A stretch of DNA of 64,000 nt, taken from the NCBI GenBank assembly GCA_964423405.1, contig CAYREY010000003.1, positions 3,944 through 67,943 on the forward strand, given 5' to 3'. A program made the translations under genes and the position numbers. Under the pieces are notes generated by a model. It had not been told where the DNA came from. It searched no databases and worked only from the letters and a program-made list of their open reading frames with translations. This document shows, piece after piece, positions 4,918 to 47,684 of this stretch. Positions within the stretch are counted from its first letter, which is position 1; every line of letters starts with the position of its first letter. This DNA is from an uncultured Chitinophaga sp. GTDB taxonomy: Bacteria > Bacteroidota > Bacteroidia > Chitinophagales > LD1.

Positions 4918-4994
4918 GGCTTCTTATGATATATAATCAATCAGTTCAAAAATTACCGGTGCTTTAATTAAGGGCGATTACTATTCATAATTAT

Positions 4995-5684: not shown

Positions 5685-5690
5685 ATAGAA

Positions 5691-6515: not shown

Positions 6516-6577
6516 AGTATGGGCTTATTTATCACAGAATTATTATTATTCTTTAGCAACCGTGCGCATTCAAGACC

Positions 6578-12757: not shown

Positions 12758-13489
12758 CTATTTCTTAATTTTTTTTGACAACTCATGTAGAACTAACGCC
12801 AGTCTGGGGAATTTCCTTTCGATTTCCTCCATTTTCATTTGATAAGAGGGAGTTTGCGAAACCATTATCCATTCAATATTGGTGATATATTTCAATATCG
12901 CCTCCATTTTTTGATCAACTCCAGAAATTTTTTCTCGCTTAAAGAAGTCGCTGAAAATTTCACTTTTAAAATCGTTAAGGTCATATTTAAGGTTATGAAC
13001 AAAACAATTCCGAAGACGGTTAATTTCCAGCAAAAAAGGAATGATTTGAGGGTATATACCCTGTTTGGATGGCAATAACTTTACTTTATTCCAAAAAGAT
13101 AGTTTTGCTTGTGCTAAGAGATTTTCATCATCACAGACTTTAAAGTTTCCAAGTAAAATCTGATCAATCAAGTGCTCAAGGCGCAAATGGGCAATGAGTA
13201 GTTTGTTTACAAATTCGGGATTTGCTGGTTTTAGATCATCATTCAGGCGTCTTTGCTGATCTCCTAATGCCAAAATCATTTCTTGGCCACCTAATGTCAT
13301 ATCACGAAGTACGTCTTCTTCGTTCATGAGCTCTTCTACCATAAGTTTTGTAACAACATCAATACCAAGGTCGTCAAGGAAGCCTTGCCATTCATGCGGA
13401 GGTATATCACGTTTCTTTTGCTTCGCTTCTTTTAGAAAATTTCTAAAACGGTCTATATTAGCGTTATCAGGCATTGGTGAATTTTTCAT
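12758..13489 (-). CDS. HEPN-domain (RNxxxH) protein, paralog 1
   Basis: Motif EINRLRNCFVHNLKY fits Rx4H. Colinear with its neighbour paralog (LIAHLRLEHLIDQIL / KLSFWNKVKLLP). I moved the start from the TTG at 13516 to the ATG at 13489, because MKNSPMPDN aligns with the paralog's MKYPPMPNQ. Confidence 0.7.
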   Translation of the reverse strand: MKNSPMPDNANIDRFRNFLKEAKQKKRDIPPHEWQGFLDDLGIDVVTKLMVEELMNEEDVLRDMTLGGQEMILALGDQQRRLNDDLKPANPEFVNKLLIAHLRLEHLIDQILLGNFKVCDDENLLAQAKLSFWNKVKLLPSKQGIYPQIIPFLLEINRLRNCFVHNLKYDLNDFKSEIFSDFFKREKISGVDQKMEAILKYITNIEWIMVSQTPSYQMKMEEIERKFPRLALVLHELSKKIKK

Positions 13490-13513: not shown

Positions 13514-13548
13514 CAAAACAAGCTACAAGCGATGCAACCTATTTGCAT
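13514..13548 (-). promoter_or_regulatory. palindrome + TTTG module, copy 1
   Basis: In gene orientation: ATGCAAATAGGTTGCAT-CGCTTGTAGCTTGT-TTTG. The TTTG ends about 24 nt before the ATG at 13489. Confidence 0.65.
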
Positions 13549-13599
13549 TCCAGAAAATACTCCATTAAGCAAAAGAATATCGAAATATTTCGGCAGCAT

Positions 13600-14376
13600 C
13601 TACAAATGCTTCAACCAATTTTCTATCGTTTTCCCATTGCCAAAAGATACCTGCCTAAGTATCGGATTGCTGTTCACAACGTCCTGCATTTGATCTTTAA
13701 GTGATGGCGTCTGTAGCAGCAAAATAAATTCCGCCACAGCGACAAACTTCATTATAGCCCGGAATTTGTCTTCAGGAGTGTCAGTCTTTTCGTCTTTCAA
13801 ATATTTTTTAAATCGCCTTCCTTCAAAATTCCGTATATCGAATTTTATGTTGTGCGCATATTCGTTTCTAAGAGTGTTTATTTCGTGCAGGAGGGAAATT
13901 ATCTCCTTAGATAATGGCGAATTTGTCGGCAACATTTTCAACTTCTGGTAAAAAGAAAGCTTTGCTTTGCTCAGATTATCTTCCCCTCGCTTATCCCTTA
14001 GATTGTCAGTTATTATTTTCTCAATAATGTATTCAAGCCTCAAATGCGCAATGAGAAATTCGCCGACTTGTCCTGCATTTAAAGGATTTAGTATCTCCTC
14101 CAACTTAGTGCGCTCCTTGTCAACCGTTTCGGCCAATTCAGCAACTGCCGTAAAATATTGAATTGCTCTTTTGAAGAGTCTCCCCCAATCATAGCCCTCT
14201 TCGGCCATAATCTGTTTTACTCTTTCTTTACCAAGCATATCCTCCAATTCTTTCCACTTTGGACTCGGATCATTTGACAGGCTAGATAGAGGCCTCTTTT
14301 CCTCTGTTTTGGCCTTTTGCAACAATTCCCGTAGCTCTTGTTCGGCACTTTGGTTTGGCATAGGTGGATATTTCAT
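13600..14376 (-). CDS. HEPN-domain (RNxxxH) protein, paralog 2
   Basis: Motif EINTLRNEYAHNIKF fits Rx4H. Paralogous to 12758..13489. Lies 19 nt downstream of the radical SAM gene with no palindrome between them, so it is probably co-transcribed. Confidence 0.7.
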   Translation of the reverse strand: MKYPPMPNQSAEQELRELLQKAKTEEKRPLSSLSNDPSPKWKELEDMLGKERVKQIMAEEGYDWGRLFKRAIQYFTAVAELAETVDKERTKLEEILNPLNAGQVGEFLIAHLRLEYIIEKIITDNLRDKRGEDNLSKAKLSFYQKLKMLPTNSPLSKEIISLLHEINTLRNEYAHNIKFDIRNFEGRRFKKYLKDEKTDTPEDKFRAIMKFVAVAEFILLLQTPSLKDQMQDVVNSNPILRQVSFGNGKTIENWLKHL

Positions 14377-14395
14377 GTTAAGCTAATTTATAGTT

Positions 14396-15631
14396 TTAAA
14401 ACAATCTACCAGCGGGATTTAATGAGCCGGCCAACTCATGCATGGTCTGCCAATCGGCGCTACTAAACGTAGGCGAGTATGCTACATGCGGAATAGCATA
14501 TTCACCCAGCACTCCTTCGCCATACTCCGGACCTGCATGATGCTTTTGCATTTCTGTACCAGGTAAAAACATAAGGGGATAGGCTACGACATTCTTAATT
14601 CCAAGGCGGGTTACCTGGTCCACATCGTTTTTAAAAGATTTTAGAGTTTGGTTAGGTAAACCATATATAAGGCTGATACCAAACTTAATCCCTCTGTCGC
14701 GCAACGCATCTAGAGTCTTTTGGATAGCTGGGTAATTGTTTCGGCGCTTTATTACAGCATTAACCAACGGGTCGAAAGTTTGTATACCAAGTTCAATCTC
14801 CGAGCCGGTCTCTGCAATAAGATCAAGAAAACGCTCATCATTTTTGCGGCTGATAAGTTCGGGCCTAACCTGGAAATTGAAAACACCTTTCATACCAAGG
14901 CTATTGACTTGCTCAAGGTAAGGTATGTATGTATTACCCATGTTGAATACCGGATCGGTTACACTTATGCGTGTAGGAGAAAATTTATGGATGTGCTCCA
15001 GTTCTGGCAATAGGCGAGTTTCGAGGTAATAATAAACCTTGCGTTGATCAAGGTCGTGCTGAGCACAAAAGGTGCATTCATATGGGCAGCCCCTTTTAGT
15101 CTCTAACCTTATTCTGGACGTATTATTGCTTAAGGAAATAACATCAGTAATAAACGGCGAAGGTATTAGGCTAAAATCTACCCCGACCTGCGAAATGGCC
15201 GGTGCAGTACCAGTTTGGACAATTTGATACAAAGCGCTCTCAGCATAGCCCAGTATAAAATGATCTGCATCCGGGTAAAATTTCTTCAAAGTTGTTAACT
15301 CATTTACATTAACCTGGTAACCTCCAGCGATAATGGAGGCCGGAACCTTATTATCCTTTAGCCACCGCATTAACCCCAGTGATTGCTTGTGCGACCAGAT
15401 GTAACAGCTAACAGCTATAAAATCCATAGCATGCCAATCAAGCCCTATAGTCTCCCAATCTATTACGCGCAATGGGCGGCTAGCCAGATTAATAGATTTG
15501 TGATGGACTTCGTAGTCTTGTCCATACCCTGGTTGACCTTTTAAATAGGAAAGAATGGAGCCTACCGAAAAGGCTACTTCGGGTTCGTCATACCGGATAA
15601 TATCGAAGGTTACAATTGCAAGGTGTTTCAT
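14396..15631 (-). CDS. radical SAM enzyme with an N-terminal B12-binding-like domain
   Basis: CxxxCxxC cluster in KRGCPYECTFCAQ. The ~170 aa before it are flavodoxin-like (MKHLAIVTFD...IIAGGYQV), as in class B radical SAM proteins. Confidence 0.8.
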   Translation of the reverse strand: MKHLAIVTFDIIRYDEPEVAFSVGSILSYLKGQPGYGQDYEVHHKSINLASRPLRVIDWETIGLDWHAMDFIAVSCYIWSHKQSLGLMRWLKDNKVPASIIAGGYQVNVNELTTLKKFYPDADHFILGYAESALYQIVQTGTAPAISQVGVDFSLIPSPFITDVISLSNNTSRIRLETKRGCPYECTFCAQHDLDQRKVYYYLETRLLPELEHIHKFSPTRISVTDPVFNMGNTYIPYLEQVNSLGMKGVFNFQVRPELISRKNDERFLDLIAETGSEIELGIQTFDPLVNAVIKRRNNYPAIQKTLDALRDRGIKFGISLIYGLPNQTLKSFKNDVDQVTRLGIKNVVAYPLMFLPGTEMQKHHAGPEYGEGVLGEYAIPHVAYSPTFSSADWQTMHELAGSLNPAGRLF

Positions 15632-15652
15632 AAGGTGGTTTATTTATACCGA

Positions 15653-15687
15653 CAAAAATGAAACGACGCAATGCAACCTATTTGCAT
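15653..15687 (-). promoter_or_regulatory. palindrome + TTTG module, copy 2
   Basis: In gene orientation: ATGCAAATAGGTTGCAT-TGCGTCGTTTCATT-TTTG, 21 nt before the radical SAM ATG at 15631. Confidence 0.65.
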
Positions 15688-15696
15688 TTGAGATAT

Positions 15697-16614
15697 TTAT
15701 TTCAAATCTGGATAGTTATGGTCGATGTATTCCTTAAACCAAATTAGGACTTCGACTAAAGCAAGAACAGAACTTTGAAAAGCATATTTTGTAACTGGGT
15801 GATCGTAACGATGTGATAGCGTTTGGCAGGTATTAACTACCGAAGAAAACAACCAACTCACATGATCAGTAAAAATGGCTTTAGGCGCTACAATTTCTCC
15901 AGAGCCGAGATTAATTTTTGCTAAATCAACCTTTCTGCCGGACAAAAATAATTCTGCGGCTTTTAGGTTTAATCGCAAATTAGCTCCTGGCTTTAACAAA
16001 GCATCCGGCAAGAAAGCTCTATTGTCTATTGTATTTGCACGTTTAAGCATTTCTTCGACCAGACCACGAATAACATTGAAATTTGCCTGGCTATACGTCC
16101 GTTCTTCTAAACAGCCGAGTAAGGAAATCATTTTATCTTGCGAAGCAATAGGTAAATACCTACCACCAAATACACTGAAGGCCTCTGGATATTTAAGTTT
16201 TAGTTTCTGTTGAGGCAAATCTTCAATCAAGAATTGAAGTTTCCGCAACATAGGCTCCGCACCTTTAGCCTTATCAAAAATCAAATCACTTTCAGTTTCA
16301 GGAATTTGGTCGAAAAGACGCTCGAAATGGCCGGTGTTAATTACAAAAGGGACAAATATGTTTTGCTTTCGTAATTCCTTAATTTTTGCCACAGCAGTGT
16401 GAATGTGCTTGTCAGTTTCTTGTGGCATGTCTTCACTTAGCCATCCCCTTCCGTCTAAAATGATTCCAGAAAATTCTCTATGCCTTCGCTCCAGTTCAAT
16501 AAGGCCCTCTTCTAAACCCTGGTAGTGTTCAATCTCAAAGTTAAATCGGCTCGCGCTATCATACAACGAATCGGCCACACTCTTGTCATCATCTATTAGG
16601 AGGATTTTAATCAT
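15697..16614 (-). CDS. response-regulator receiver (REC) protein with an uncharacterised ~180-aa C-terminal domain
   Basis: N-terminal MIKILLIDDDKSVADSL ... FSGIILDGRGW ... VPFVINTGH fits the REC beta1/beta3/beta4 pattern with an acceptor Asp. Overlaps the kinase gene by 8 nt. Confidence 0.7.
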   Translation of the reverse strand: MIKILLIDDDKSVADSLYDSASRFNFEIEHYQGLEEGLIELERRHREFSGIILDGRGWLSEDMPQETDKHIHTAVAKIKELRKQNIFVPFVINTGHFERLFDQIPETESDLIFDKAKGAEPMLRKLQFLIEDLPQQKLKLKYPEAFSVFGGRYLPIASQDKMISLLGCLEERTYSQANFNVIRGLVEEMLKRANTIDNRAFLPDALLKPGANLRLNLKAAELFLSGRKVDLAKINLGSGEIVAPKAIFTDHVSWLFSSVVNTCQTLSHRYDHPVTKYAFQSSVLALVEVLIWFKEYIDHNYPDLK

Positions 16615-19438
16615 AGTTTTGATTGAAGGGCAAAGTTAAATCTAGTTGAAAATTACTATAATCCGGATGGCCAACCACAAGATTATTTCCACCATCTATC
16701 TGGCCGCCATGTAAATTTACTATCTGTTTAAGGATATACCCCCCGATTCCAGAGCCGCCTGATTCACCTGATTTTTTCCCAAACTCAAAAAAATCATCAT
16801 AAGAAAAGTCATTCTTTACGCCTTTGCCTGAATCATAATACGCAATGCCAATATTTTTATTCTTTTCCGGGTCTCCCTCAATGTATAAGTCGATAAACAA
16901 CTTATGGTCTTCAACTTTTCCATGTTTCATAGCATTTTCGACAATATTTCTGAAAAACTCCTGAATCAAGAATCTATCGATATCAACCCAAATAGGTTTC
17001 AGTCTTATACTTTCTACTGATGTGCTTCCTACGATTGCCCACTCACCATTTGTATCTAAAGCATTAATCTCAAGCGCAAAATCACGCTCAGGGAGATTAA
17101 TCTCACTTATAGTTTTTTGAATGAAAGTGACCAACTCAGTCTTCTCAAACTTTAATTCTCTTCTATTCAATTCGGTCAAACTTTTGATTTTGTCGAAAGT
17201 ATGTTCTGCAGAAAGAATACTATCATCCATTCTTGCTATCAGTTGCTCTAGGCTCCTCTTTTTAGAGATTTCCGAAGTCCAAGAAATGTTTTCTCTTGCG
17301 TCGATTGCAGAAGCCAGAAAATACTTCAAAGACTCAACATCATTCCGAATGGAACTAAATTGTTGAGAAAGACTATGACGTACTGTGGAGAGAATTGAAT
17401 ATTCACGTTTTCGGGCACCGCTTTTTTCCGCTAGCGTATCAGCTTCGCTTTGCTTTAGTCGATGTAAAATTTGAAGTTTTTCACGAATAATTTTATCCTG
17501 TTCATGAAGTGAGGGAATAGCCAAAGCAATATTCAAAAATTCGTTCACCCTCCAGGTTAGTTGCGCGGCACCAGTAAGAATATTCCTGAACTGTTTTAAG
17601 AAAAGATCCGAGCGAAATTCCTGAATTAAAAATTCAATACGAACTTTCGACTCATCAAGCGTGAATGCAAGTATATTAGGACTAATAACAATATTTCTTT
17701 CCTTGGCACTAAAAAATGTTGGCTTTAAGTTTTCGCCTATTCTCGCAACTAGTAAAACTGGTTGACTCAGATGCATTCCTTTTTGAGACCAGGTTTCCAC
17801 AGATGTTTCGGAAGCAAAAGATAATTCGAAATCACTATCAGAATTCTTCAAATCAGATATTTTAATAAAAGGCACCTTTGCATCATTCGATTCAATTTTC
17901 TCCTTAACTACCGTCAGGATCTCATTCAGCAAACAAATCTCTTTCCGCTCGCTTTTAAGTTTTTCTAATTCATGTTGGACTGGTGAAATGTATCGTTCCG
18001 GCTGAAGTATAGAATCAATTTCCAATACTTCAGACATTGTTACAACTCTTGAGTTAGAACTGTTATCAGGCTTTTCCAGCGACTCAAGAATATCCTCCGG
18101 GTGTTGAGTTATGACCTGGTTAGTTGACTCTAAAGTATACACCGAATTCAGGAAGTGTATTCGTCCCTTCTTGCTCTCTTCTTTGTTTTTATTCAGAATC
18201 AATAAATCCTGTTTAACTCCCGAATTGGATTTATCCATTCCCAAAGGCAAAGATATTACTGCCTCCACCCAATCTTTAGATACAAGTAGCTCGCGTAAAT
18301 AATAATGCGCTCCTGAGGATGCAGACAAAAGACTCTGAGGTACAACTACAAAGGCTATTCCGTTCGTCTTTAGCATAGAGGTTATCGCCTCAACGTATGC
18401 TAATTCTGCATTTTTAACACTACCTTGTAATGTTCGAAATTTAGAGTTACCTGTTGGGTCTATAATTACTCTTGAAGGTACAATACCAAATACGGCATCG
18501 TACGAGGCTTCACCGACCTCTGCCAATCTCAAGAAGTCATAGCAGAGAATCGTATTCTTGTTAGATACAAATAAATTCCTTAACTCCAGAAAAACTGCCT
18601 GTGCCTCCATATCAGTATGTAAATCAACTTGGTCTGTTGCTTTTATAGACAATTTGGATATTACGGGCGTTAGTTCAGTAAAGGCATTCAGCATTTTTCC
18701 TTGAATGTCCTTAAACTTGGCAATAGTTCCTATTAAATTCAATATGTAATCTGGAACTTGAATGCCACGGTTTGCTGACCCTTTGAGATAAAGACCTTTT
18801 ATTTTTTCGAATTCAGATAATAGCTTTGAAAGGGTTGATGTATCAAACTGATATGATTTGGTGATCACAAATGCCTCATACCAGACACTTGCATTTACGG
18901 CGTGCAATTGCATCTTAATGAATGCTTGCAGCCTTGGAGTGAGATTTCCATTTACAATCAAAGCATCAGTTAAAGAGCCTAGGCTCTGTTGAATTTCATT
19001 AGCATTAGCGTGTTCTACTTCAGCTAGCCTTAAGGCCAGTGTATTAGAACTACCACTTTCCCTCTGCTGCTCGGCAGAGAACCGTTTAGACATCGCAAAT
19101 AAAAATTTCACATAACAGGTCCAAAGACACAACTCAATTGTCAGTATACCCTCGCCCGCATGCTTAGACCGGGAAAACAAATTGAAGAGATCAGAAGTCA
19201 ATCTTTGATAATCATCGCTTCCTTCTGTAAGATTGGCTCTTAACTCATATAAATTTGAAATTTTATTCTGGAATAATTGCGGATAATTTTTGATTCGTGC
19301 ATGAATTTGTGAAGTAGGAACAGGCTTCCCATCCTTTCTCACATATAATTTTAACGCGTTAATCCTTTCCGCAATATCTTTTGCGTTGGAAATCTTCTTA
19401 GTCTTTAAAACTTCTACTATTGCTTCGTGTAATGTCAT
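16607..19438 (-). CDS. fusion protein: winged-HTH-like N-terminus, degenerate HsdM-like methylase fold, HsdS-like TRD, then histidine kinase (H-box + HATPase_c)
   Basis: Colinear with the HsdM in this window, but the catalytic motifs are replaced: DPSAGSG becomes NAFTELT, and NPPF becomes GIVPS. It retains FVVVPQSLLSASSG...VISLPLGM...LLILNK. The TRD-like region ends in IPSLHEQDKIIREKLQIL. The kinase part has STVRHSLSQQ, N-box FRNIVENAMKHG, YYDSGKGV, and GGSGIGGYILKQIVNLHGGQI. Confidence 0.7.
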   Translation of the reverse strand: MTLHEAIVEVLKTKKISNAKDIAERINALKLYVRKDGKPVPTSQIHARIKNYPQLFQNKISNLYELRANLTEGSDDYQRLTSDLFNLFSRSKHAGEGILTIELCLWTCYVKFLFAMSKRFSAEQQRESGSSNTLALRLAEVEHANANEIQQSLGSLTDALIVNGNLTPRLQAFIKMQLHAVNASVWYEAFVITKSYQFDTSTLSKLLSEFEKIKGLYLKGSANRGIQVPDYILNLIGTIAKFKDIQGKMLNAFTELTPVISKLSIKATDQVDLHTDMEAQAVFLELRNLFVSNKNTILCYDFLRLAEVGEASYDAVFGIVPSRVIIDPTGNSKFRTLQGSVKNAELAYVEAITSMLKTNGIAFVVVPQSLLSASSGAHYYLRELLVSKDWVEAVISLPLGMDKSNSGVKQDLLILNKNKEESKKGRIHFLNSVYTLESTNQVITQHPEDILESLEKPDNSSNSRVVTMSEVLEIDSILQPERYISPVQHELEKLKSERKEICLLNEILTVVKEKIESNDAKVPFIKISDLKNSDSDFELSFASETSVETWSQKGMHLSQPVLLVARIGENLKPTFFSAKERNIVISPNILAFTLDESKVRIEFLIQEFRSDLFLKQFRNILTGAAQLTWRVNEFLNIALAIPSLHEQDKIIREKLQILHRLKQSEADTLAEKSGARKREYSILSTVRHSLSQQFSSIRNDVESLKYFLASAIDARENISWTSEISKKRSLEQLIARMDDSILSAEHTFDKIKSLTELNRRELKFEKTELVTFIQKTISEINLPERDFALEINALDTNGEWAIVGSTSVESIRLKPIWVDIDRFLIQEFFRNIVENAMKHGKVEDHKLFIDLYIEGDPEKNKNIGIAYYDSGKGVKNDFSYDDFFEFGKKSGESGGSGIGGYILKQIVNLHGGQIDGGNNLVVGHPDYSNFQLDLTLPFNQNYD

Positions 19439-19504
19439 ATTATATCCTTCTAACTTTAAATTACTTTTATTTCCTCTTTTGTCTATTCAATGTTTACTCA
19501 GGTG

Positions 19505-19539
19505 CAAATAAAAGCACTCTCAATGCAATCTATTTGCAT
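19505..19539 (-). promoter_or_regulatory. palindrome + TTTG module, copy 3
   Basis: In gene orientation: ATGCAAATAGATTGCAT-TGAGAGTGCTTTTA-TTTG, upstream of the kinase/REC pair (ATG at 19438). Confidence 0.65.
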
Positions 19540-19540
19540 T

Positions 19541-19978
19541 TTAGAAAGGCGCATTATCAAAAAGTGAAAATTGCTGATCGACCTCCACGCGAATTGTCTT
19601 CTCAGGAACCGGCACATCATTGATAAAATTAACGCATTCGTAAATGTCAGCTATTTTATCCCCATCCAATTGAAACAATAAATCCATATAATGACCCTGT
19701 TCACCAAGGAAGGTAAGTCCCCGACAGCCCTTGCTGCAACCTGAGCAACTACCCTTATGTAAAGTAAGATTTTTATCCCCTGCCTTCTCAAATTGCTCAA
19801 ATGCCTTAATTAGTTTGCTTACAAATAGATACTTAGGGAAATCCTGGTAAGTCCTCTCCACGTCGAGAAATGAACTAACCATTTCAATATCTAGGCGAGC
19901 TATAAAATAGACTATCGCCTCATATTGATTTCGCGGTTTCGCTATATATTCTTGTTCCGAAAATAGTTGAAGTTGCAT
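19541..19978 (-). CDS. hypothetical Cys-rich protein, partner of the SF1 helicase
   Basis: 145-aa ORF lying 9 nt downstream of the helicase gene, with the cysteine cluster GSCSGCSKGCRG. No recognisable family. Confidence 0.55.
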   Translation of the reverse strand: MQLQLFSEQEYIAKPRNQYEAIVYFIARLDIEMVSSFLDVERTYQDFPKYLFVSKLIKAFEQFEKAGDKNLTLHKGSCSGCSKGCRGLTFLGEQGHYMDLLFQLDGDKIADIYECVNFINDVPVPEKTIRVEVDQQFSLFDNAPF

Positions 19979-19987
19979 CCTTTCAGT

Positions 19988-21340
19988 TCAATAAAGATTC
20001 AAAATACTCTTTGCTCTGGTTACCGCTGTATATTGATATTTTAAGGATGGCATATAGAAGGTATTTAAAAACACCTTTTCCCATTCACCTCCTTGCGCCT
20101 TATTACAAGTAATGCTATGTCCGTAACTCAAACGAATTGCTCCAACGTACTTATCGTCCTGCGGAAACATGGATTCACGAAATACAGGATTTTTAGCATA
20201 GCGCTCCTGCCTCAAACCATTTTCAGCGCCCATGGACAATGTTCCATTTGCAGCATTTAAGCAATCGAGCAGAATGTAATCCTCAATTTCAAATTCTTCG
20301 CCCTTCATATTTTTCGAGGAAATCTTTACCGGCACGAAATGCAGACCAGCAACAACTTCCATCCGGTCCATATCCACCTCTTTAACCACCACATGGTCAC
20401 CATTAAACAAGTTCTGCGCATTTCTACTCCAGTTTTGCGTCACAATCATTAAGTCTCCTGATTCAACAATAGCTGCATTGGAACCATAAATACGTTCACG
20501 CACTCTGTCGTTAAATACCTTATTACTTTTATGCGAACAAGCTATTGATACGCAATATTCTTGGCCGTATCTCTTAAAGTCCTCTACGTAATTAGTCACC
20601 GCACCTGAAAAATAGCTAAATTTAAAGCCTTCTAATCGCGGCTCGCCGGTATTATTTTCTATGGCTTTTCGGAGGTTTAGGGCATTCTTCATAATCTCGC
20701 TACCGTCCTCCTGGCGTTTTACTTCTGTCAAAAAATGAGATGTTCCTTTCCAGCTAAAGGTTTTCCGCAAAAATTCAGGCACCAATGCCATTGAATCTTG
20801 CTCATCAATCGGGGGCAATTGATTTCTATCGCCTAGAAAAACCACCTTGTTTTTCTGATTGCCATTTTTCACAAACTTCACCAAATCGCTCAATAATGAG
20901 TTTTCACTTTTCATCAGCGACAATTCTTTGTTGGTAGAATTCGCTGGAATCATTGAAGATTCATCCAGGATATAAACCGTAAATTTATCTACCGGATTTT
21001 GTTTCAGCCGATAATTGACTTCGCCGGTGGTTTTATTCACCGAAACGTTATAAATCATGGAGTGAATGGTGGAACTGACTGAATTTCCCTTCCGGCCTAT
21101 AATACGCGCCGCCCGGCCTGTAGGTGCCGCAATCTTATAACTTTGTTCCAACTTGTTTAAATAACCAATAAGGGCCGAAGTAATTGAGGTTTTTCCAGTG
21201 CCTGCTGCACCGCACAGAATCATAAAGTCATCCGTATTTTCCTGCTTCACGAACTCCGACATTGCCGTAAGAGCTTTCTTCTGTTCGGCAGTAGGACAAT
21301 CAAAATGTAAAAAATCAAGGATAGAAATTGCGGTGTTCAT
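19988..21340 (-). CDS. RecD/Pif1/TraA-like SF1 helicase (AAA_30 + UvrD_C_2-like)
   Basis: LCGAAGTGKTSITSAL (Walker A), VYILDESSMI (Walker B), LGDRNQLPPI, HSITCNKAQGGEWEKVF, YTAVTRAKSILNLY. Confidence 0.85.
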   Translation of the reverse strand: MNTAISILDFLHFDCPTAEQKKALTAMSEFVKQENTDDFMILCGAAGTGKTSITSALIGYLNKLEQSYKIAAPTGRAARIIGRKGNSVSSTIHSMIYNVSVNKTTGEVNYRLKQNPVDKFTVYILDESSMIPANSTNKELSLMKSENSLLSDLVKFVKNGNQKNKVVFLGDRNQLPPIDEQDSMALVPEFLRKTFSWKGTSHFLTEVKRQEDGSEIMKNALNLRKAIENNTGEPRLEGFKFSYFSGAVTNYVEDFKRYGQEYCVSIACSHKSNKVFNDRVRERIYGSNAAIVESGDLMIVTQNWSRNAQNLFNGDHVVVKEVDMDRMEVVAGLHFVPVKISSKNMKGEEFEIEDYILLDCLNAANGTLSMGAENGLRQERYAKNPVFRESMFPQDDKYVGAIRLSYGHSITCNKAQGGEWEKVFLNTFYMPSLKYQYTAVTRAKSILNLY

Positions 21341-21363
21341 GGCGTTTCGCTTTATTTACGCAG

Positions 21364-21398
21364 CAAACATCGAGACACCCGATGCAATCTATTTGCAT
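21364..21398 (-). promoter_or_regulatory. palindrome + TTTG module, copy 4, in the divergent helicase / WYL-regulator intergenic region
   Basis: In minus orientation: ATGCAAATAGATTGCAT-CGGGTGTCTCGATG-TTTG, 23 nt before the helicase ATG at 21340. On the plus strand the palindrome reads ...TCTATTTGCAT and ends 12 nt before the WYL gene ATG at 21411. TCTATTTG resembles a TAnnTTTG -7 box. Confidence 0.65.
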
Positions 21399-21410
21399 TT
21401 CGCCCCAATT

Positions 21411-22418
21411 ATGCCGAAGAACTTACATTTTGACATTCGAAAACAGCACCTAAATGAGTTACTGCGTGGCAAACAAGGCTACACCTTAGAGGAATTGATG
21501 AATCGGATAGGTGAAAAAATTAGCGATTACCGAAAAAACAGTAAAGGTGTAAGTAAAAAGACTATCCAGAATGACATCAGGTTCATGAAGGAAGAAGCCC
21601 TAAAAAAGAATGGCAAAATTGTTTGTATAAAAGGGAAATACAGGTATGAACCACCCGATTTCAATATTTATGACGTCCAGATTAGCCCCCACTCGGTTGA
21701 GAAAATAAAGCTGGCAATTTCTCTTTTAAAGCAGATAAAAGGACTTGATCTACACGAGGAACTTAAGGAAATATATGATGAACTGAAAATGCGAGTAACC
21801 GATGATCAGGAAGTCGACAACCGTTACATACAGTTTGATGTTAGGCCAGAATATCAAGGAAGCGAATATATAAGTGAACTGTTGGCGGCAATAACCGGCG
21901 AAACACCAATCAGTTTTGATTATCAGCCTTTTCTAGTTCCCGAAAAGTATAGAGTTATAGTTCATCCCTACCTGCTTAAGGAGTATAATAACAGATGGTT
22001 CCTGATTGGATGGCAGGAGGAAAAGAAAATAATTCAGGTTTATGCCCTTGACCGGATAAAGAGCAAAATTAAACATGAAGGCAAGTTCGAATTTTTCAAT
22101 TACCATAAATTCCACGCGGACACGTATTATAACGATGTGATCGGGGTCAGCATTCCACCAGAAGCAAAGGTTGAAAAGGTGGTATTGAAATTTAGACGTG
22201 AAAGGGTTCAATACGTGGAAACCAACCCCTTGCACCACAGCCAGAAACCGAATGGGCAAGACGAGGCTACAAAGTCGTTTCAGTATCAGTTAATTCCAAA
22301 TAACGAGTTGAAGGCCCAAATTCTGTATTTCGGTAGTGATATTGAGGTGATTGGGCCAGAAAAGCTGAGAGAAGATATTGCAGCAATTATTACAGAAGCA
22401 AACAAAAAGTATATTTAG
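21411..22418 (+). CDS. HTH + WYL-domain transcriptional regulator (BrxR/CapW-like)
   Basis: N-terminal HTH-like YTLEELMNRIGEKIS...KKTIQNDIRFMKEE. WYL-type core VIVHPYLLKEYNNRWFLIGW and YALDRIKS. I start it at the ATG at 21411. The track start at 21198 would overlap the divergent helicase gene and run through the palindrome. Confidence 0.8.
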   Translation: MPKNLHFDIRKQHLNELLRGKQGYTLEELMNRIGEKISDYRKNSKGVSKKTIQNDIRFMKEEALKKNGKIVCIKGKYRYEPPDFNIYDVQISPHSVEKIKLAISLLKQIKGLDLHEELKEIYDELKMRVTDDQEVDNRYIQFDVRPEYQGSEYISELLAAITGETPISFDYQPFLVPEKYRVIVHPYLLKEYNNRWFLIGWQEEKKIIQVYALDRIKSKIKHEGKFEFFNYHKFHADTYYNDVIGVSIPPEAKVEKVVLKFRRERVQYVETNPLHHSQKPNGQDEATKSFQYQLIPNNELKAQILYFGSDIEVIGPEKLREDIAAIITEANKKYI

Positions 22419-22420
22419 AA

Positions 22421-22455
22421 ATGCAAATAGATTGCACTCCTTAAGAGTTTATTTG
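22421..22455 (+). promoter_or_regulatory. palindrome + TTTG module, copy 5
   Basis: ATGCAAATAGATTGCAC-TCCTTAAGAGTTTA-TTTG. The TTTG ends 6 nt before the first arm of the inverted repeat that brackets the RT-upstream region. Confidence 0.65.
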
Positions 22456-22461
22456 TATCAC

Positions 22462-22732
22462 GTTCCTTGAATGCCTGCCGAAAATATTGATTGTGTCAGC
22501 TGGAAATTACCGAAAGGTGGATTTCAGATCGGCTGATGGCATTGGGAGTAATCCTGGTGCTGAATGTTTCTTTGGTCATTTTAATCGATAACTTTCGATA
22601 AACTGTATCAATAGAAACGATATATATGTTATGTTATAATATGATATATAATATAGCAATATCATTTGTTATAATTAATAATCATTGCGAATTGATTCAT
22701 ATACAAAGAATAAAAGGCAGGCATTCGGGAAC
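22462..22732 (+). ncRNA. candidate retron msr-msd-type non-coding RNA bracketed by a1/a2-like inverted repeats
   Basis: GTTCCTTGAATGCCTGCC (22462-22479) is complementary to GGCAGGCATTCGGGAAC (22716-22732): 11 bp perfect, a small internal loop, then 5 bp. The ~236 nt between have no ORF. They contain local hairpins, e.g. GCAUUGGGA-GUAA-UCCUGGUGC, and an AT-rich stretch. The 3' arm ends 8 nt before the RT ATG. This position and architecture match retron ncRNAs. Confidence 0.5.
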
Positions 22733-22740
22733 TTTTAATC

Positions 22741-25497
22741 ATGAGACCCGAAAACGAGCAAATTCTTTTTATTAAAAATGCTTTTCAAAATATGAAAAGC
22801 CCTGAAGACTTCCTTAAACTGCTAAATTATGCCAAACCCATAATTTACGGTATTAAGTCAGTGCCTTTCGGAATAAAACATCTTCGTTTTCATTCTAATC
22901 CGAAAGCCAACAGAAGAAGGTACGTTAGTTTTTCAATTCCCAAAAAAGCGGGTGGAATTAGAACCATACATGCGCCTAATAAGGGATTAAAATCAGTTTT
23001 GAAGTGCCTAAACATGATTCTTCAATGCGTTTACGAACCTCATAAAGCAGCTACCGGGTTCGTTTTAGATAAGTCGATTGTCACTAACGCCAAGCAGCAT
23101 ACCGGTAGTCTATACGTTTATAATATCGATTTGAAGGATTTCTTTCCAAGCGTGGACCAGGCAAGATTCTGGGGCCGTTTAAAGTATCATCCCTTTAACC
23201 TCAATGAGGAAAACAACCGTCTTGATATCGCTAACATAATAGGAGGCTTATGTTTTCAGGAAATGGAGGTAGAGCGAATCGAAGAAAATGGCAATTGGGT
23301 GAAAGTTGTGAAGAACGTTTTGCCTCAAGGAGCACCAACCTCCCCAACGATTACCAATATTATTTGCGAACGGCTTGACTTCTATTTAAGCGCAGTAGCC
23401 CGGCGTTTTGGCCTTAAATATTCTCGTTATGCCGATGATATTACTTTTTCTTCTATGCACAACGTTTATCATAAAGACGGGGACTTTATAAAGGAATTGC
23501 ATAGAATAATTGCGACGCAAGGCTTTCACATTAAAGAAAGCAAAGTACGCTTACAACGACCGGGCTACCGCCAGGAAGTAACCGGACTGATTGTGAATGA
23601 AAAAGTCAATGTAACGAAACGATACATAAAACGGTTGAGAATGTGCCTTTATCTATGGGAGCATTATGGCTATATAAAAGCAGAACAAATTTTCATTAAA
23701 GATTATATCGGAGATAAGGGCCATCTTATAAAAAGCAAGCCCAATATGGCCAACGTTATTTGGGGGAAACTGGAGTACTTGAAGATGGTAAAAGGCACGA
23801 AAGACAAAGTATATCTAGGGTTGTCAAGCCGGTTCTCGAAGTTAACCGAAACAAATGTTCCAGCAAAAGAAACAACTGATTTTAAAGAGGTAGAGAAAGC
23901 GAACATTCCCGATACCGTAAGTAAAATAGGCGATCCTCAAAAAGCGGAATGGATTACACCAGAAGAATATGGAAAGGTACTAACGCTTATTAAAGCCGAG
24001 GAAGCAGTAAAAATGGAGTATCAAAAGAGCTTTGAACAGGTTTACAATTTAACTGAAGGTAATTATCAGTATTTTAAAAAGAGTGGAGAACTGATTGCAA
24101 CAATGAATATTGAAATCTTAGACCAAAGACTTGTAGTCAATAAGTTTCAATTAAGTGATTTAGAAGGTCTTCCAGATTCAGTTAAAACTGCTCAGAATTT
24201 TGAGGAAAGATTAAATAGCCAGGTGTTGTGTCCTAATCGAGGTTTAATAAACAACAAGGCGATTGTTGAGTTGGCTATATTGGAAAATTTCGGAAACGCT
24301 TTTGCCGGAATTTTTAGGAAAATTGAAGAACCCGCGAATCCAACAAACTCAAAAATCAAGGTACTAATTATTCATACTGATAAAAGGACAGATACGTTAA
24401 GAAAAGATATTACCCTCCGCAAGGGAACACTTGTCCCTTATGAAGGGGAATTGGAAAATTCCGTTGAATCCAGCTTGAGTCAGCAACACAATCCTCTCAA
24501 TACGTTGAATGTTTTGAAACTGTTTCACGACAACAATAGCTATTTAAAATACACAACTCACAGTTGGGAATTTGGAATTGACGAATCAGATGACAATTAC
24601 TATAACTATAGGAATTACAGCGATTTTATTGGTAAGGCATTAGGCCAATGGAATAAAATCAAAAGAAAATACAAAAAATGGAATGCTGTTGACAAAAAGT
24701 TTGACTACACTATCCCGCCAAGCCTTTGGGAAAAAATAGAATTATTTCTCCTTTCAACCGATTTTAAACGACTCGGAAAAGATGGACACTTAGCTAAACC
24801 TGTTGGCTGGGGCAAACACCATGTTCAATTTGGTTGGTCCAGCATTGAATTATCTGAATGGGCAAAGTCCAATCCCAACGAAAATCCATTAAAATTTCCT
24901 TTACCCACCGAAAAGCAACTCGAGATTAACGGAAGAAAACTATACAGTTTTAAAGATATAACTATACTTTTTAAAAGCGAGATTGAGTTTAGAGAAGATA
25001 CAAATCATTTTTACAATTTAATTCTTCGTTTATGGGAGGACGTTTGGCATTTCGATATTAAATTAAATTCCGAAGAACTTGAAAAACTTAAGGGAGTTTC
25101 ATTGTTCACCGAAACTCAAAGAATTGAATCTGGTCTTAATAAAATTTTTGAGTCGTTTATCCAAGGTGGACGAACTACTTTCAACGAAGCGATAATACAG
25201 CGGAGTGATATCTTAATTGATCCTTATACAAATCCATATCAAGAAATTAGAATTACTCAAGTAGGTAGTTTTAGCGTTAGAAACCCCAAGGACTCTAACC
25301 TAGACGGCAACTCTGGTGATTTTGTAGACATCAAAAGATTATTCAACAGCCTATGTGATTGGTCAGTTGAATCTAAATTTGGTGACGGAAAAGCATATAG
25401 GTTAAGTTATCTTGACATTGCGAACGGGCCTTTTATTGAAGAAATCGATGTGTCTTCTGTAAGAGGATTTACTCATGTTTTAAAATTTTACCTATGA
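22741..25497 (+). CDS. retron-type reverse transcriptase with a ~580-aa C-terminal extension
   Basis: NAxxH (VTNAKQHTG), NIDLKDFFPSV, LPQGAPTSPTITNIICERLD, SRYADDITFSS (YADD), RQEVTGLIVNEK (VTG). At 918 aa it is far longer than the usual 300-400 aa retron RT. Confidence 0.85.
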   Translation: MRPENEQILFIKNAFQNMKSPEDFLKLLNYAKPIIYGIKSVPFGIKHLRFHSNPKANRRRYVSFSIPKKAGGIRTIHAPNKGLKSVLKCLNMILQCVYEPHKAATGFVLDKSIVTNAKQHTGSLYVYNIDLKDFFPSVDQARFWGRLKYHPFNLNEENNRLDIANIIGGLCFQEMEVERIEENGNWVKVVKNVLPQGAPTSPTITNIICERLDFYLSAVARRFGLKYSRYADDITFSSMHNVYHKDGDFIKELHRIIATQGFHIKESKVRLQRPGYRQEVTGLIVNEKVNVTKRYIKRLRMCLYLWEHYGYIKAEQIFIKDYIGDKGHLIKSKPNMANVIWGKLEYLKMVKGTKDKVYLGLSSRFSKLTETNVPAKETTDFKEVEKANIPDTVSKIGDPQKAEWITPEEYGKVLTLIKAEEAVKMEYQKSFEQVYNLTEGNYQYFKKSGELIATMNIEILDQRLVVNKFQLSDLEGLPDSVKTAQNFEERLNSQVLCPNRGLINNKAIVELAILENFGNAFAGIFRKIEEPANPTNSKIKVLIIHTDKRTDTLRKDITLRKGTLVPYEGELENSVESSLSQQHNPLNTLNVLKLFHDNNSYLKYTTHSWEFGIDESDDNYYNYRNYSDFIGKALGQWNKIKRKYKKWNAVDKKFDYTIPPSLWEKIELFLLSTDFKRLGKDGHLAKPVGWGKHHVQFGWSSIELSEWAKSNPNENPLKFPLPTEKQLEINGRKLYSFKDITILFKSEIEFREDTNHFYNLILRLWEDVWHFDIKLNSEELEKLKGVSLFTETQRIESGLNKIFESFIQGGRTTFNEAIIQRSDILIDPYTNPYQEIRITQVGSFSVRNPKDSNLDGNSGDFVDIKRLFNSLCDWSVESKFGDGKAYRLSYLDIANGPFIEEIDVSSVRGFTHVLKFYL

Positions 25498-26180
25498 AAA
25501 CGATTGCTCTAATAGATGATCGAAAATCCAGACAAGAAATTTATAGTGAAAGCATTGTTCAGGCACTTGCTCATTCCAACTTGGACAACATTCAAGGATC
25601 ACGGTTGATAGGGTTTAACGACAACATGAATAAACTGGAAACCTCAATTTTTGACAACTACAAGGTTATTATTATTCACAGATCCTTTCTTTTGCAATCT
25701 TACAGACTTGCTTTAAAAGATTATATCGAAAAGACGGAAAAGTACTTGGTGTTATTTTCTGGTGGAACTCCGGCAACGGTATTAAATGACAGAGTGCTTT
25801 CTATCAATTCCAAGGATTTATACTCGCATAAACTATATACATTTTTAGAAAATTCAATCAATAGCAGCATACCTAATCTACAGATTCTTGCGTTTGGAGC
25901 GAGATGGAAATTAAACTTACTCTACGGGTTGGTGGATAAAATTCAGAATTATCTAGCTCAAAATGCAGAAAAAAATGTCCCCATAAGCGTCATTAAACAG
26001 CATGTGGGGTATACATCATCTTTCCGCGATTTTTTCCCAAATAGCAAAGTCTTAGCGGAGTTTGAATCCATTTCCTCTGGAGAGATAATCAATAGCAACA
26101 AACAACTTTCCTTGATATTAAATGAATTGACACTAATTATTAATATCGAAATTCAATCAGATGAAACCTTTACTAATTGA
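25494..26180 (+). CDS. receiver-like (degenerate REC) protein
   Basis: MKTIALIDDRKS ... YKVIIIHRSFL ... YLVLFSGGTP follows the REC strand pattern, but His sits where the acceptor Asp would be. 4-nt overlap with the RT gene. Confidence 0.55.
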   Translation: MKTIALIDDRKSRQEIYSESIVQALAHSNLDNIQGSRLIGFNDNMNKLETSIFDNYKVIIIHRSFLLQSYRLALKDYIEKTEKYLVLFSGGTPATVLNDRVLSINSKDLYSHKLYTFLENSINSSIPNLQILAFGARWKLNLLYGLVDKIQNYLAQNAEKNVPISVIKQHVGYTSSFRDFFPNSKVLAEFESISSGEIINSNKQLSLILNELTLIINIEIQSDETFTN

Positions 26181-27870
26181 TTCGACAGATAGTAGGTACG
26201 GCGGCTTACTAAAATGGGAAAACAGCGTTTCTATTGGCTACAAGTATCCTGAAGAATCGGATTTAAAGGGCGATTTTTCAAATATTGATACTTTTATTAG
26301 CAATGGTCCCGCCAGCATTATTTCGCAGATAGCTTCCTGCGATTTCGAATACTACATCATTCCGCTTTCCTTAACGAATACATTATTAGATTTTTCCGGA
26401 ATTAGGCTGGCACAACATATAAGACTCACTAAGAGCCTAGAGGAAAAAAGATTGTTTCCTATAATTTTTGTTAGCTGGATTAATCCAATGCACGTCATCA
26501 AATTAGCTGAAGCAGGAGAAATAATTACTGCATCAGGTAATTATTTCTGCAAACCAACTAGAGATGCAATTGAGAATGCAATTAGCATGGGATTATTGCC
26601 CTGTAAGCAGGCTACTGATAAAATTAAAATCTCAATTCATAACCAATCAAACTCTCACCATTCCATAGCCAATGAGTGGTCGATTCTTACTCTATCGCAA
26701 TCGCTAGGCATCAGCGAAAAATTAAAAGAAACAACAGATTACTTCGAGGCTCAATTATATTTTAAATATCTGTTAACCAATTTTGACAACAATGTAAATA
26801 CGCCTCGCAACATTCCGCAATTGAATCGCACTGGAGAGAAGAAGAGGATCCTTTATATTGACGATGAATACAAAAAGGGCTGGGAGGAAATATTTGGTGC
26901 TTTTTTCTCAGGTCAGTCGAATATTAACTTTAAGTGTTTTGAGCCAACTAAGGATTTTACGGACTTTGAAACTTCGGACGACCTCATCGTTGAAATCGTC
27001 AAATTTGTAAGAAATTTTGACCCGGACATTGTTCTTCTTGATTTGCGATTGCATGACCAAGACTTCGAGCCAAACAGAGCAGCAAATGAAATGACCGGAT
27101 TAAAAATCCTCAAGGAAATTAAGGATAAGATTAATCCTGGCATCCAAATTATTGTCATTACTGCTTCAAATAAAGTTTGGAACTTAATCGAACTTCAAAA
27201 TTCAGGAATGGACTTTTTTGTTCTAAAAAATTCACCTGAAATAAATTCGGGTACTCAATCTATTGACCATTTTTTTTATCAATTTCAGGAAGTCTTAGAA
27301 CAAGCTTTCAAGAAATCATTCATTAAGGGATTAATATCTTCCTTATTAAAAATCAAAACGAAACTGTCAATAGTAAATGAGCCTGAAAATCCAGAATATA
27401 ACAAGCTGATTGCTTATTTGAAATCCCAAATCAATGTAGGAATCTCAATGCTGGGTCTAATTAATCCTCAAAAATCAGTTACGCTTGATATTGCCTTCTT
27501 AACATTTTATAATTTTCTTGAAAGTTTTAAAGGATACTATTTGCAGTATGACAAAAGCGACTACCGATATTATTTAGGCTTTGACAAAATTATAGTTCAT
27601 AGATACTCTTATGACAAAGGTCTGAAAGATGATGGGGAATTTGTTGCGAAGGATACATATGACAAACCTAGTTGGAGTTGCTTTCTAACTGCTCTTTTTT
27701 TCGATTATTTTAAGGTTATAAAAAGCCCTTACCAAGAAGCTGGTTCATTGAAGCAACTACAAAAATGGCGAAATGATTATATCCACTCAACCAAACGATT
27801 TTTCGACAAAAGTGAATTGACAATAATAATCTCTATTTGCGTAAGGGCATGTGACGCTATAAAAGAGTGA
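26161..27870 (+). CDS. multi-domain protein: degenerate receiver-like N-terminus, canonical REC domain, and C-terminal HEPN-like domain
   Basis: REC: KRILYIDDEYKKGW ... PDIVLLDLRLHD ... QIIVITASNK ... FFVLK. C-terminus: LQKWRNDYIHSTK fits Rx4H. 20-nt overlap with the upstream gene. Confidence 0.65.
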   Translation: MKPLLIDSTDSRYGGLLKWENSVSIGYKYPEESDLKGDFSNIDTFISNGPASIISQIASCDFEYYIIPLSLTNTLLDFSGIRLAQHIRLTKSLEEKRLFPIIFVSWINPMHVIKLAEAGEIITASGNYFCKPTRDAIENAISMGLLPCKQATDKIKISIHNQSNSHHSIANEWSILTLSQSLGISEKLKETTDYFEAQLYFKYLLTNFDNNVNTPRNIPQLNRTGEKKRILYIDDEYKKGWEEIFGAFFSGQSNINFKCFEPTKDFTDFETSDDLIVEIVKFVRNFDPDIVLLDLRLHDQDFEPNRAANEMTGLKILKEIKDKINPGIQIIVITASNKVWNLIELQNSGMDFFVLKNSPEINSGTQSIDHFFYQFQEVLEQAFKKSFIKGLISSLLKIKTKLSIVNEPENPEYNKLIAYLKSQINVGISMLGLINPQKSVTLDIAFLTFYNFLESFKGYYLQYDKSDYRYYLGFDKIIVHRYSYDKGLKDDGEFVAKDTYDKPSWSCFLTALFFDYFKVIKSPYQEAGSLKQLQKWRNDYIHSTKRFFDKSELTIIISICVRACDAIKE

Positions 27871-27871
27871 A

Positions 27872-27906
27872 ATGCAAATAGATTGCACTGAATTAATGTT
27901 TGTTTG
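27872..27906 (+). promoter_or_regulatory. palindrome + TTTG module, copy 6
   Basis: ATGCAAATAGATTGCAC-TGAATTAATGTTTG-TTTG, starting 1 nt after the stop at 27870 and ending 18 nt before the ATG at 27925. Confidence 0.65.
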
Positions 27907-27924
27907 TCAAAATTTTATGTCCTT

Positions 27925-42440: not shown

Positions 42441-42455
42441 ATTATATCTTCTGTC

Positions 42456-44192: not shown

Positions 44193-44206
44193 TCAACCGG
44201 TTCCGG

Positions 44207-47674: not shown

Positions 47675-47684
47675 AACTGTTTTT

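Follow-up and report, generated by a model that had tools for sequence, protein, structure and literature searches.

The closest described relatives of the system reported here are regulators built from a winged helix-turn-helix (wHTH) domain followed by WYL and WCX domains. DriD of Caulobacter crescentus, an SOS-independent DNA-damage activator of ~330 amino acids (aa), carries between these parts a three-helix bundle that is key to activation (PMC10853764, PMC12392091). Its site, ATACGAC-N7-GTCGTAT, has the core CGAC-N7-GTCG and an AT-rich centre, is bound asymmetrically, and as a type lies on average 17 nucleotides (nt) ahead of the start codon of driD homologues (PMC10853764). Cryo-electron microscopy placed DriD sites over the -35 position at all regulated promoters, at an identical distance to the -10 element and with no -35 element, and the site between driD and a divergent operon activates that operon (PMC13004042). 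PafBC of Actinobacteria acts by sigma adaptation; according to passages in PMC12392091 and PMC13004042, its operator is a -26 element that stands in for the -35 element at a constant distance from -10. The Moraxellaceae activator DdaA, which acts on DNA-damage and anti-phage networks, has a palindrome, CGWCA-N5-TGWCG, that heads many operons, including restriction-modification (RM) and CRISPR-Cas systems (PMC12392091). BrxR and CapW are wHTH-WYL-WCX dimers that sit beside defence systems and bind inverted repeats, BrxR at two sites in a single island, and CapW senses single-stranded DNA (ssDNA) (PMC9122601, PMC11662680); a survey of the BrxR family contained no Bacteroidetes members (PMC9122601). 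Here we describe a 35-nt promoter-like module that occurs six times in a 64-kb stretch of DNA from an uncultured Chitinophaga sp. (hereafter the window), together with the WYL protein encoded among the copies. We best explain the locus, with a probability of about 0.58, as a regulon of heterogeneous defence cassettes under an activator that responds to a signal, probably ssDNA.

The module consists of a 17-nt palindrome, 14 variable nt and the tetranucleotide TTTG. An initial annotation had listed six exact copies, all intergenic and pointing at a downstream gene, each with this 14-nt interval, and none elsewhere in the window. A search for ATGCAAATAGRTTGCAY-N14-TTTG recovered all six with no mismatches at the same coordinates, and both the intergenic position and the orientation held for 6/6 when judged from called start codons. 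The modules and the regulator gene are as follows (putative -7 boxes are discussed below; L182 is a related island from another genome).

Module 1: 13514..13548, minus strand; palindrome ATGCAAATAGGTTGCAT, 14 nt and TTTG; putative -7 box TTGTTTTG; ATG 24 nt after the TTTG
Module 2: 15653..15687, minus strand; putative -7 box CATTTTTG; homology to L182 stops exactly at the module's 5' edge
Module 3: 19505..19539, minus strand; putative -7 box TTTATTTG; begins 1 nt past the stop codon of the upstream gene
Module 4: 21364..21398, minus strand; putative -7 box GATGTTTG; divergent from the WYL gene, 12 nt short of its ATG (21411)
Module 5: 22421..22455, plus strand; putative -7 box TTTATTTG; begins 2 nt past the WYL stop codon
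Module 6: 27872..27906, plus strand; putative -7 box TTTGTTTG; begins 1 nt past the preceding stop codon; homology to L182 begins 3 nt earlier
Regulator: 21411..22418, plus strand; 335 aa; wHTH, three-helix bundle, WYL and WCX domains

No seventh site was present in the window even when three mismatches were allowed, and the pattern was absent from 100 dinucleotide-preserving shuffles of the window sequence. The core TGCAA-N5-TTGCA alone was found six times, compared with 0.14 expected from the shuffles. The 14-nt spacer differed in each of the six copies, and four of the six modules began 1-9 nt past the stop codon of the preceding gene. From TTTG to ATG the gap was 18-66 nt in five units and 285 nt in the unit headed by a reverse transcriptase (RT) gene. 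The remaining ~50 kb of the window also carries defence-like genes, type I RM among them, yet has no modules.

The anatomy of the module is that of a promoter. In mapped Bacteroidota promoters (Flavobacterium transcriptome), the sigma-A box TAnnTTTG occupies -12..-5 (PMC9723704). If the TTTG of the module is taken as this -7 box, the palindrome spans -39..-23 and is centred at -31; its core, TGCA-AATAGRT-TGCA, is of the form 4-N7-4, with an AT-rich and asymmetric centre. We aligned 69 non-redundant modules, taken from other genomes as well as the window; in most of them the TTTG had been imposed by the search while positions -12 and -11 were free. T was found at -12 in 46/69 and A at -11 in 43/69, which completes TAnnTTTG, and position -4 was C in 41/69. 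The aligned modules contained no -33 TTTG element, positions -35..-32 being AAAT within the palindrome. Across modules of the window and elsewhere, the first start codon mostly followed 15-40 nt past the TTTG (median 30), retron-type RT genes being the exception to such short leaders (276-349 nt). Together with the position of a retron RNA arm described below, the bases at -12 and -11 and the distances to start codons make it a well-supported prediction that each module is a sigma-A promoter, and so sustain the initial reading of a Bacteroidota promoter whose -33 region is occupied by the palindrome. The full TA is missing from all six window boxes, as might be expected of weak promoters that depend on a factor.

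The way in which the module was defined does not account for the fixed offset. In loci retrieved by way of WYL homologues, with no condition placed on motif or TTTG in the DNA, TTTG stood at exactly +14 in 21/21 sites with up to two mismatches. Near-matches in 822 kb of unrelated DNA numbered four, none with TTTG. A 16-mer scan of 185,579 species genomes (596 Gb) returned at least 120 loci, with ~500 chance matches expected; most of the matches listed were chance singletons, and among the matches listed, which did not include the source genome, TTTG occurred at +14 in 10 and at any other offset in at most 2. In natural variants TGCA is retained on both sides, and the changes fall at positions 1, 6, 9, 10 and 16.

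Other identities for the element were considered and rejected. The sigma-54 consensus is TGGCAC-N5-TTGCW; the site has no GG, and a conserved sigma-A -7 box follows it at constant spacing. An intrinsic terminator was dismissed on account of a 5-6-bp AT-rich stem that is too weak and of an element that always faces the downstream gene. A structured RNA family found no backing in Rfam, which gave no matches in the window. Recent local duplication is contradicted by the spacers, which all differ, and by the 17-mer and its phase, which are kept across Bacteroidota orders.

Beyond the window, the module keeps company with one protein family. All-against-all clustering of open reading frames (ORFs) over 68 module-bearing loci placed the WYL family in 30 of them and the next family in 8, and Pfam identified a divergent WYL protein in two further module loci. 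By tblastn, 22/60 metagenome loci with a full module contained a WYL homologue, and among the matches listed in the 16-mer scan, WYL homologues adjoined the motif in L006, L045, L103 and L106. Where at least 1.1 kb of upstream sequence was available, a WYL gene lay within 400 nt of 13/36 non-redundant modules, a proportion that matches the 2/6 of the window. The arrangements are stereotyped. In one, the WYL gene is divergent and its ATG lies 7-15 nt (sometimes 46-183 nt) from the 5' end of the module, the closer spacing being seen in L006, L138, L140, L150, L182-L185 and L187; the initial placement of copy 4 in the divergent WYL promoter, 12 nt from the ATG, is borne out and belongs here. In a second, the WYL stop codon lies 4-15 nt ahead of a same-strand module, and modules just past the WYL stop, as is module 5, were found in L138, L146, L148, L163, L179, L185, L187 and L188. 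Occasionally the module lies ~260-300 nt upstream of the WYL gene.

The converse comparison started from WYL homologues on long contigs that were chosen blind to the DNA (96, 50, 48, 48, 41, 36, 34, 32 and 31% identity). The six at 96, 50, 48, 48, 41 and 36% identity all had modules flanking the WYL gene, at the same two positions as in the window. The 34% homologue (L192/L194) was accompanied, near 9841(-) and 5250(-), by a variant palindrome, ATGCAGATACAATGCAC, with TAACTTTG standing at the canonical offset, and this variant module heads a gene for a 2640-aa helicase. The recognition helix of that homologue reads SVRQIRADI, compared with SKKTIQNDI in the window protein, so that changed helix and changed palindrome coincide in this single case, a possible co-variation of protein and site. 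The association is phylum-wide: all credible carriers are Bacteroidota, except for one contig binned as Parcubacteria. The modules are thus tied to the WYL regulator as the initial annotation had proposed, and we consider it very likely that the palindrome is bound by the protein encoded at 21411-22418.

Binding by some other conserved Bacteroidota factor, whether a global regulator or an alternative sigma factor, with the WYL gene merely one of its targets, would account for a 17-mer that is identical across orders although the WYL proteins diverge to ~30% identity, and for the many modules that have no WYL gene in the available flank. It would leave several observations unexplained: no other protein family occurs in more than 8/68 loci, every lineage sampled blind has the module at two stereotyped positions beside the WYL gene, and in the one lineage whose recognition helix has changed the palindrome has changed as well. 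An alternative sigma factor also fits poorly with the conserved TAnnTTTG, which points to housekeeping sigma-A (PMC9723704), and with a site from which the GG of the sigma-54 -24 element is missing. We regard this explanation as highly improbable.

Several other sequences resembling the palindrome stood apart from this pattern. The sole IMG/VR match, which might have pointed to a phage-borne element, groups with L162, L169, L171 and L196; there is no WYL gene, the site overlaps ORFs, and this set is probably unrelated. Flavobacterium 17-mers (L014, L035, L104 5813-5829 and L118) were rejected as modules, being conserved coding sequence inside a 355-aa ORF. In a Cytophagales metagenome-assembled genome (L001, 3740-6716(-)), the 17-mer occurs four times within 3 kb, twice with TTTG and twice without; the copies head small genes (DnaB_C-like, ExoX-like_C), a RhuM-family gene is divergent from the outermost copy, and a WYL gene was not found in the 8-kb block examined.

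The regulator itself falls into the wHTH-WYL-WCX superfamily. Pfam matched WYL (E 1.8e-11) and WCX (E 5.4e-9), both past curated cut-offs, and an AlphaFold2 model built with 41 homologues (mean predicted local distance difference test score 87) contained a wHTH, a three-helix bundle, a WYL barrel and a WCX domain. The modelled wHTH comprises helices 5-17, 26-38 and 49-65 with a beta hairpin at 69-80, and the bundle between it and the WYL domain is formed by helices 93-107, 114-125 and 150-162. Foldseek against the Protein Data Bank (PDB) ranked DriD first (E 2e-14, template modelling score 0.55), followed by PafBC (8e-13), CapW (5e-8) and BrxR (2e-7), the model aligning full-length with the DriD and PafBC chains. 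A profile search against PDB sequences gave PafBC 6e-12, PafB 1e-9, DriD 2e-7, BrxR 6.6e-4 and CapW 1.1e-3. In a single-sequence search CapW reached only E 0.94 and BrxR was unmatched; a family-level similarity (E < 1e-5 to BrxR, Picton et al.) was not found. By predicted fold and profile, then, the protein appears nearer to the activators DriD and PafBC than to the repressors BrxR and CapW, all of these similarities being remote. DriD, with the same domain order and a similar length, is the best structural match, and PafBC the best sequence-profile match, in which the Arg of xRW[YF]L and L-x-R-I align; the invariant residues R195 (NRWF) and R215 (LDRI) align with PafB Arg residues (RW, SRI), which hints at ssDNA as the WYL ligand.

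Compared feature by feature, the locus shares with DriD a 4-N7-4 palindrome with an AT-rich, asymmetric centre (here with TGCA half-sites rather than CGAC), a site over the -35 position at fixed distance and orientation with no -35/-33 element, and a copy close to the start codon of the regulator (here 7-15 nt) that is aimed at a divergent operon. It differs in that the proteins are 15-16% identical, that the promoters there have a sigma-70-type -10 element where here they have the -7 box TAnnTTTG, and that DriD targets are dispersed repair and division genes whereas those predicted here are defence cassettes in one island. PafBC, a heterodimer or fused tandem, has a -26 element that is not palindromic and controls a DNA-repair regulon, whereas the regulator of the window is one chain, has a palindromic site and lies in a defence island. 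DdaA offers a precedent for one WYL regulon over heterogeneous defence systems, although its site lies ~50 base pairs (bp) upstream of the start site, its regulon is genome-wide, chromosomal and repair-centred, and both phylum and promoter type are different. The description of the present regulon as unusual was accordingly overstated, since the DdaA regulon already spans several defence systems (PMC12392091) and a single island contains two BrxR sites (PMC9122601). Like BrxR and CapW, the regulator adjoins defence systems, its neighbours here and in related loci including a retron RT, PDC-M16/TOTE, PDC-M51A, type I RM and Cas6b; BrxR and CapW are shorter (~285-295 aa) and poorer matches, and neither has been reported to have a promoter cassette of fixed phase.

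These likenesses suggest how the island may be controlled. The palindrome would be the operator of the island's own wHTH-three-helix bundle-WYL-WCX regulator, bound by a dimer in one fixed orientation, and the regulator would work most likely in the manner of DriD or PafBC. Its WYL domain would bind a nucleic-acid signal, probably ssDNA arising from phage replication or DNA damage, whereupon the protein would dock on the palindrome and recruit or adapt RNA polymerase at six otherwise weak promoters. Such a step would switch on jointly the radical-SAM unit, the methyltransferase (MTase)-GHKL unit, the helicase and four-Cys pair, the retron (non-coding RNA, RT-HisKin and iREC with receiver (REC)), TOTE/PDC-M16 and the 243-aa gene. 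At copy 4, bound regulator would probably limit its own synthesis too, as no -7-like box other than the one on the reverse strand of the operator precedes the regulator gene. On the plus strand the palindrome of module 4 reads TCTATTTG (21388-21395), 15 nt ahead of the WYL ATG; the 160 nt ahead of the WYL start contain no TTTG but the one in this palindrome, and the same is true in every divergent relative. We consider TCTATTTG a candidate -7 box for the WYL gene's own promoter; if so, the leader would be ~4-12 nt long, and the regulator, once bound, would mask the promoter of its own gene. This second role may explain part of the conserved asymmetric spacer, although copies far from WYL genes keep the spacer too.

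Activation is favoured because the module reproduces each feature of a DriD promoter, and, given binding, we think it fairly probable that the regulator activates rather than represses. A number of points weigh against the activator regulon. BrxR and CapW, which are the characterised WYL regulators with a link to defence, both act as repressors, CapW being released by ssDNA (PMC9122601, PMC11662680), and a dimer centred at -31 could simply block polymerase. The missing -33 element is weak evidence, as Flavobacterium promoters generally lack one, the element being dispensable or absent (PMC7366714). Similarity to DriD and PafBC is remote, at 13-17% identity, and simple dimer symmetry does not explain the conserved asymmetric spacer. 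A WYL gene is absent from the available sequence around 20/36 well-flanked non-redundant modules, for which action in trans must be assumed. Finally, the surroundings of the 31-32% homologues (L190/L191 and L195), which adjoin thioredoxin-like genes, are free of modules within 10 kb despite a near-identical helix, ISKRTIQTDI.

The first of these points motivates a reading with the same operator and the same regulator acting as a repressor of the BrxR/CapW type, in which a dimer on -39..-23 would block sigma-A until an infection or DNA-damage signal released it. The regulator's place in a defence island and the overlap of its operator with the core promoter both suit this reading, the reverse-strand -7-like box of copy 4 implies auto-repression in any case, and a tight off-state would suit toxic effectors such as retrons and TOTE. 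Steric blocking, however, needs neither invariant spacing (21/21 sites) nor invariant orientation, both of which are hallmarks of DriD/PafBC activation (PMC13004042); the protein has the three-helix bundle and is nearer to DriD and PafBC by profile and fold; and the operator of BrxR, which lies downstream of the -10 element and consists of 11-bp inverted repeats separated by 5 bp (PMC9122601), is unlike the 4-6-bp arms found here upstream of the -7 box. The repressor analogy drawn in the initial annotation thus lost ground on both protein and operator, and we regard repression as a less probable, though serious, alternative.

Under the activator regulon that we prefer, the six modules would control the following units.

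Unit 1: 12758..13489, minus strand; 243-aa protein with no detectable domain
Unit 2: 13600..15631, minus strand; B12-binding radical SAM protein (14396-15631; PADLOC PDC-M51A, E 3e-85) and a 258-aa protein (13600-14376; weak DUF4145)
Unit 3: 15697..19438, minus strand; 943-aa fusion of N6_Mtase, type-I-S-like and HATPase_c (GHKL) parts, and a 305-aa protein of unknown type
Unit 4: 19541..21340, minus strand; 450-aa superfamily 1 (SF1) helicase (AAA_19/AAA_30/PIF1/UvrD_C_2; PADLOC PDC-M16A-like) and a 145-aa four-Cys protein
Unit 5 leader: 22456..22740, plus strand; 285 nt, probable retron non-coding RNA
Unit 5: 22741..27870, plus strand; 918-aa retron-type RT fused to HisKin-conflict, a 228-aa protein and a 569-aa iREC and receiver protein
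Unit 6: 27925..31708, plus strand; TOTE-type system, equivalent to PADLOC PDC-M16, with an SF1 helicase-TBP-TOTE protein (PDC-M16A, E 1e-266) and a DUF7017/S1CSD-TOTE-1/2 protein (PDC-M16B, E 1e-203)

The TOTE conflict system is defined in PMC12458937. Some unit labels in the initial annotation need revision. The genes called 'HEPN-1' and 'HEPN-2' encode, respectively, the 243-aa protein, which has no detectable domain, and the 258-aa protein, which has only a sub-threshold DUF4145 match; what had been labelled 'kinase + REC' is not such a pair, the first protein being a fusion of N6-methyltransferase, specificity and GHKL-ATPase parts and the second the 305-aa protein. In the other loci, 65 genes downstream of modules fell into 38 families, the commonest being MTase-GHKL fusions (8), followed by retron RTs (7) and SF1 helicases (6); Cas6b, AAA_15/21 ATPases and a trypsin-like protease also occur behind modules.

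The long leader of unit 5 bears directly on the promoter assignment. PADLOC retron RT models match the unit 5 RT with E down to 3e-96. The 5' segment GTTCCTTGAATGCCTGCCG of the leader pairs with the 3' segment CGGCAGGCATTCGGGAAC, and across seven homologous leaders 13/22 pairs are kept through double changes. The 5' arm starts 7 nt past the TTTG, ~2 nt past the predicted start site. No Rfam family matched this leader, which is probably a retron msr-msd RNA transcribed from the module promoter, as judged from covariation and position. The combination of RT-HisKin with iREC/REC resembles a two-component relay, an uncharacterised arrangement for a retron effector; in L182 the RT domain is conserved and the C-terminal part diverges beyond window position 23795.

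The helicase and four-Cys pair of unit 4 stays with the regulator in relatives of 41-96% identity, and in L150, L182, L183, L185 and L187 it is likewise divergent from the WYL clade gene. The small protein is 145-149 aa long, has invariant C78, C81, C85 and C115, and is 60-70% identical among relatives, compared with ~50% for the regulator. Its family is narrow, with 44 clusters, none annotated. The 145-aa protein had no Pfam or PADLOC match, no similarity to TOTE proteins and a weak match to an NTF2-like fold, which by itself gives no functional lead. As the pair sits under the operator of the regulator, it might generate or present the ssDNA signal and so form a self-amplifying sensor.

Two further groups of genes in the window deserve mention. 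On the minus strand downstream of unit 1 (2854-12595), a type I RM system comprises HsdS (6578-7897), HsdM (7890-9518) and HsdR (9512-12595), with an AAA_15/AAA_21 ATPase at 2854-4917; hsdR lies 163 nt past the unit 1 gene on the same strand, so read-through from module 1 is possible. Four very large ORFs at 38445-49787(-) (1331, 578, 1155 and 700 aa, one with Tubulin_2) have no module and may represent another conflict-type cluster.

A sister island revealed how the units are exchanged. L182 encodes a WYL protein 96% identical to that of the window and also carries six modules, and homology between the two islands is confined to three blocks (14327-15686, 19493-23795 and 27869-31699). Of the six block ends, three lie 0-12 nt from the edge of a module: one coincides with the 5' end of module 2, one precedes module 6 by 3 nt and one follows the TTTG of module 3 by 12 nt. 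Homology ending at module edges indicates that cassettes have been swapped module by module, which could reflect either operons travelling with their own promoter or modules serving as preferred junctions. A stronger version of the second idea holds that the module is primarily recombinational, a cassette junction akin to an integron attC or shufflon site whose promoter function is secondary. The block ends, the four modules placed 1-9 nt from a preceding stop codon and the 38 families found behind modules would all be expected from such a junction, but no recombinase is consistently associated with it and none was present among the window ORFs scanned, the fixed phase of the -7 box and the 15-40 nt to start codons are properties of promoters, and cassettes that carry their own promoter would yield the same block pattern. 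We hold a primarily recombinational role to be very unlikely. A milder proposal keeps the WYL regulon and makes the module the address label of a plug-in array, enrolling any operon placed behind it, with copies also acting as exchange junctions between islands; the switching of homology to L182 at module edges and the 38 families inspired this idea, which we put forward as speculative.

The motif strings did not occur in the searchable literature, nor did the literature we searched contain a description of a Bacteroidota WYL defence regulon. What appears new is an operator in the style of DriD and PafBC, held in fixed phase and fused to a Bacteroidota -7 box, present in up to six copies per island and essentially unchanged across the phylum; it is a candidate case of the DriD/PafBC promoter architecture on the -7/-33 promoter type of Bacteroidota. 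Little is understood of how defence islands are regulated, and for Bacteroidota, a phylum dominant in gut, soil and marine communities, there is hardly any work on the question. A compact, searchable motif predicts the members of one inducible immune regulon, including uncharacterised cassettes such as a retron with a histidine-kinase/receiver effector, TOTE/PDC-M16, PDC-M51 and MTase-GHKL fusions. It also serves as a handle for discovery, as genes of unknown role behind modules are candidate new defence systems. With one regulator and six promoters, the island offers a testable system in which to ask whether antiphage arsenals are co-induced by a nucleic-acid danger signal; if the WYL protein binds the palindrome, the whole arsenal would be switchable together.

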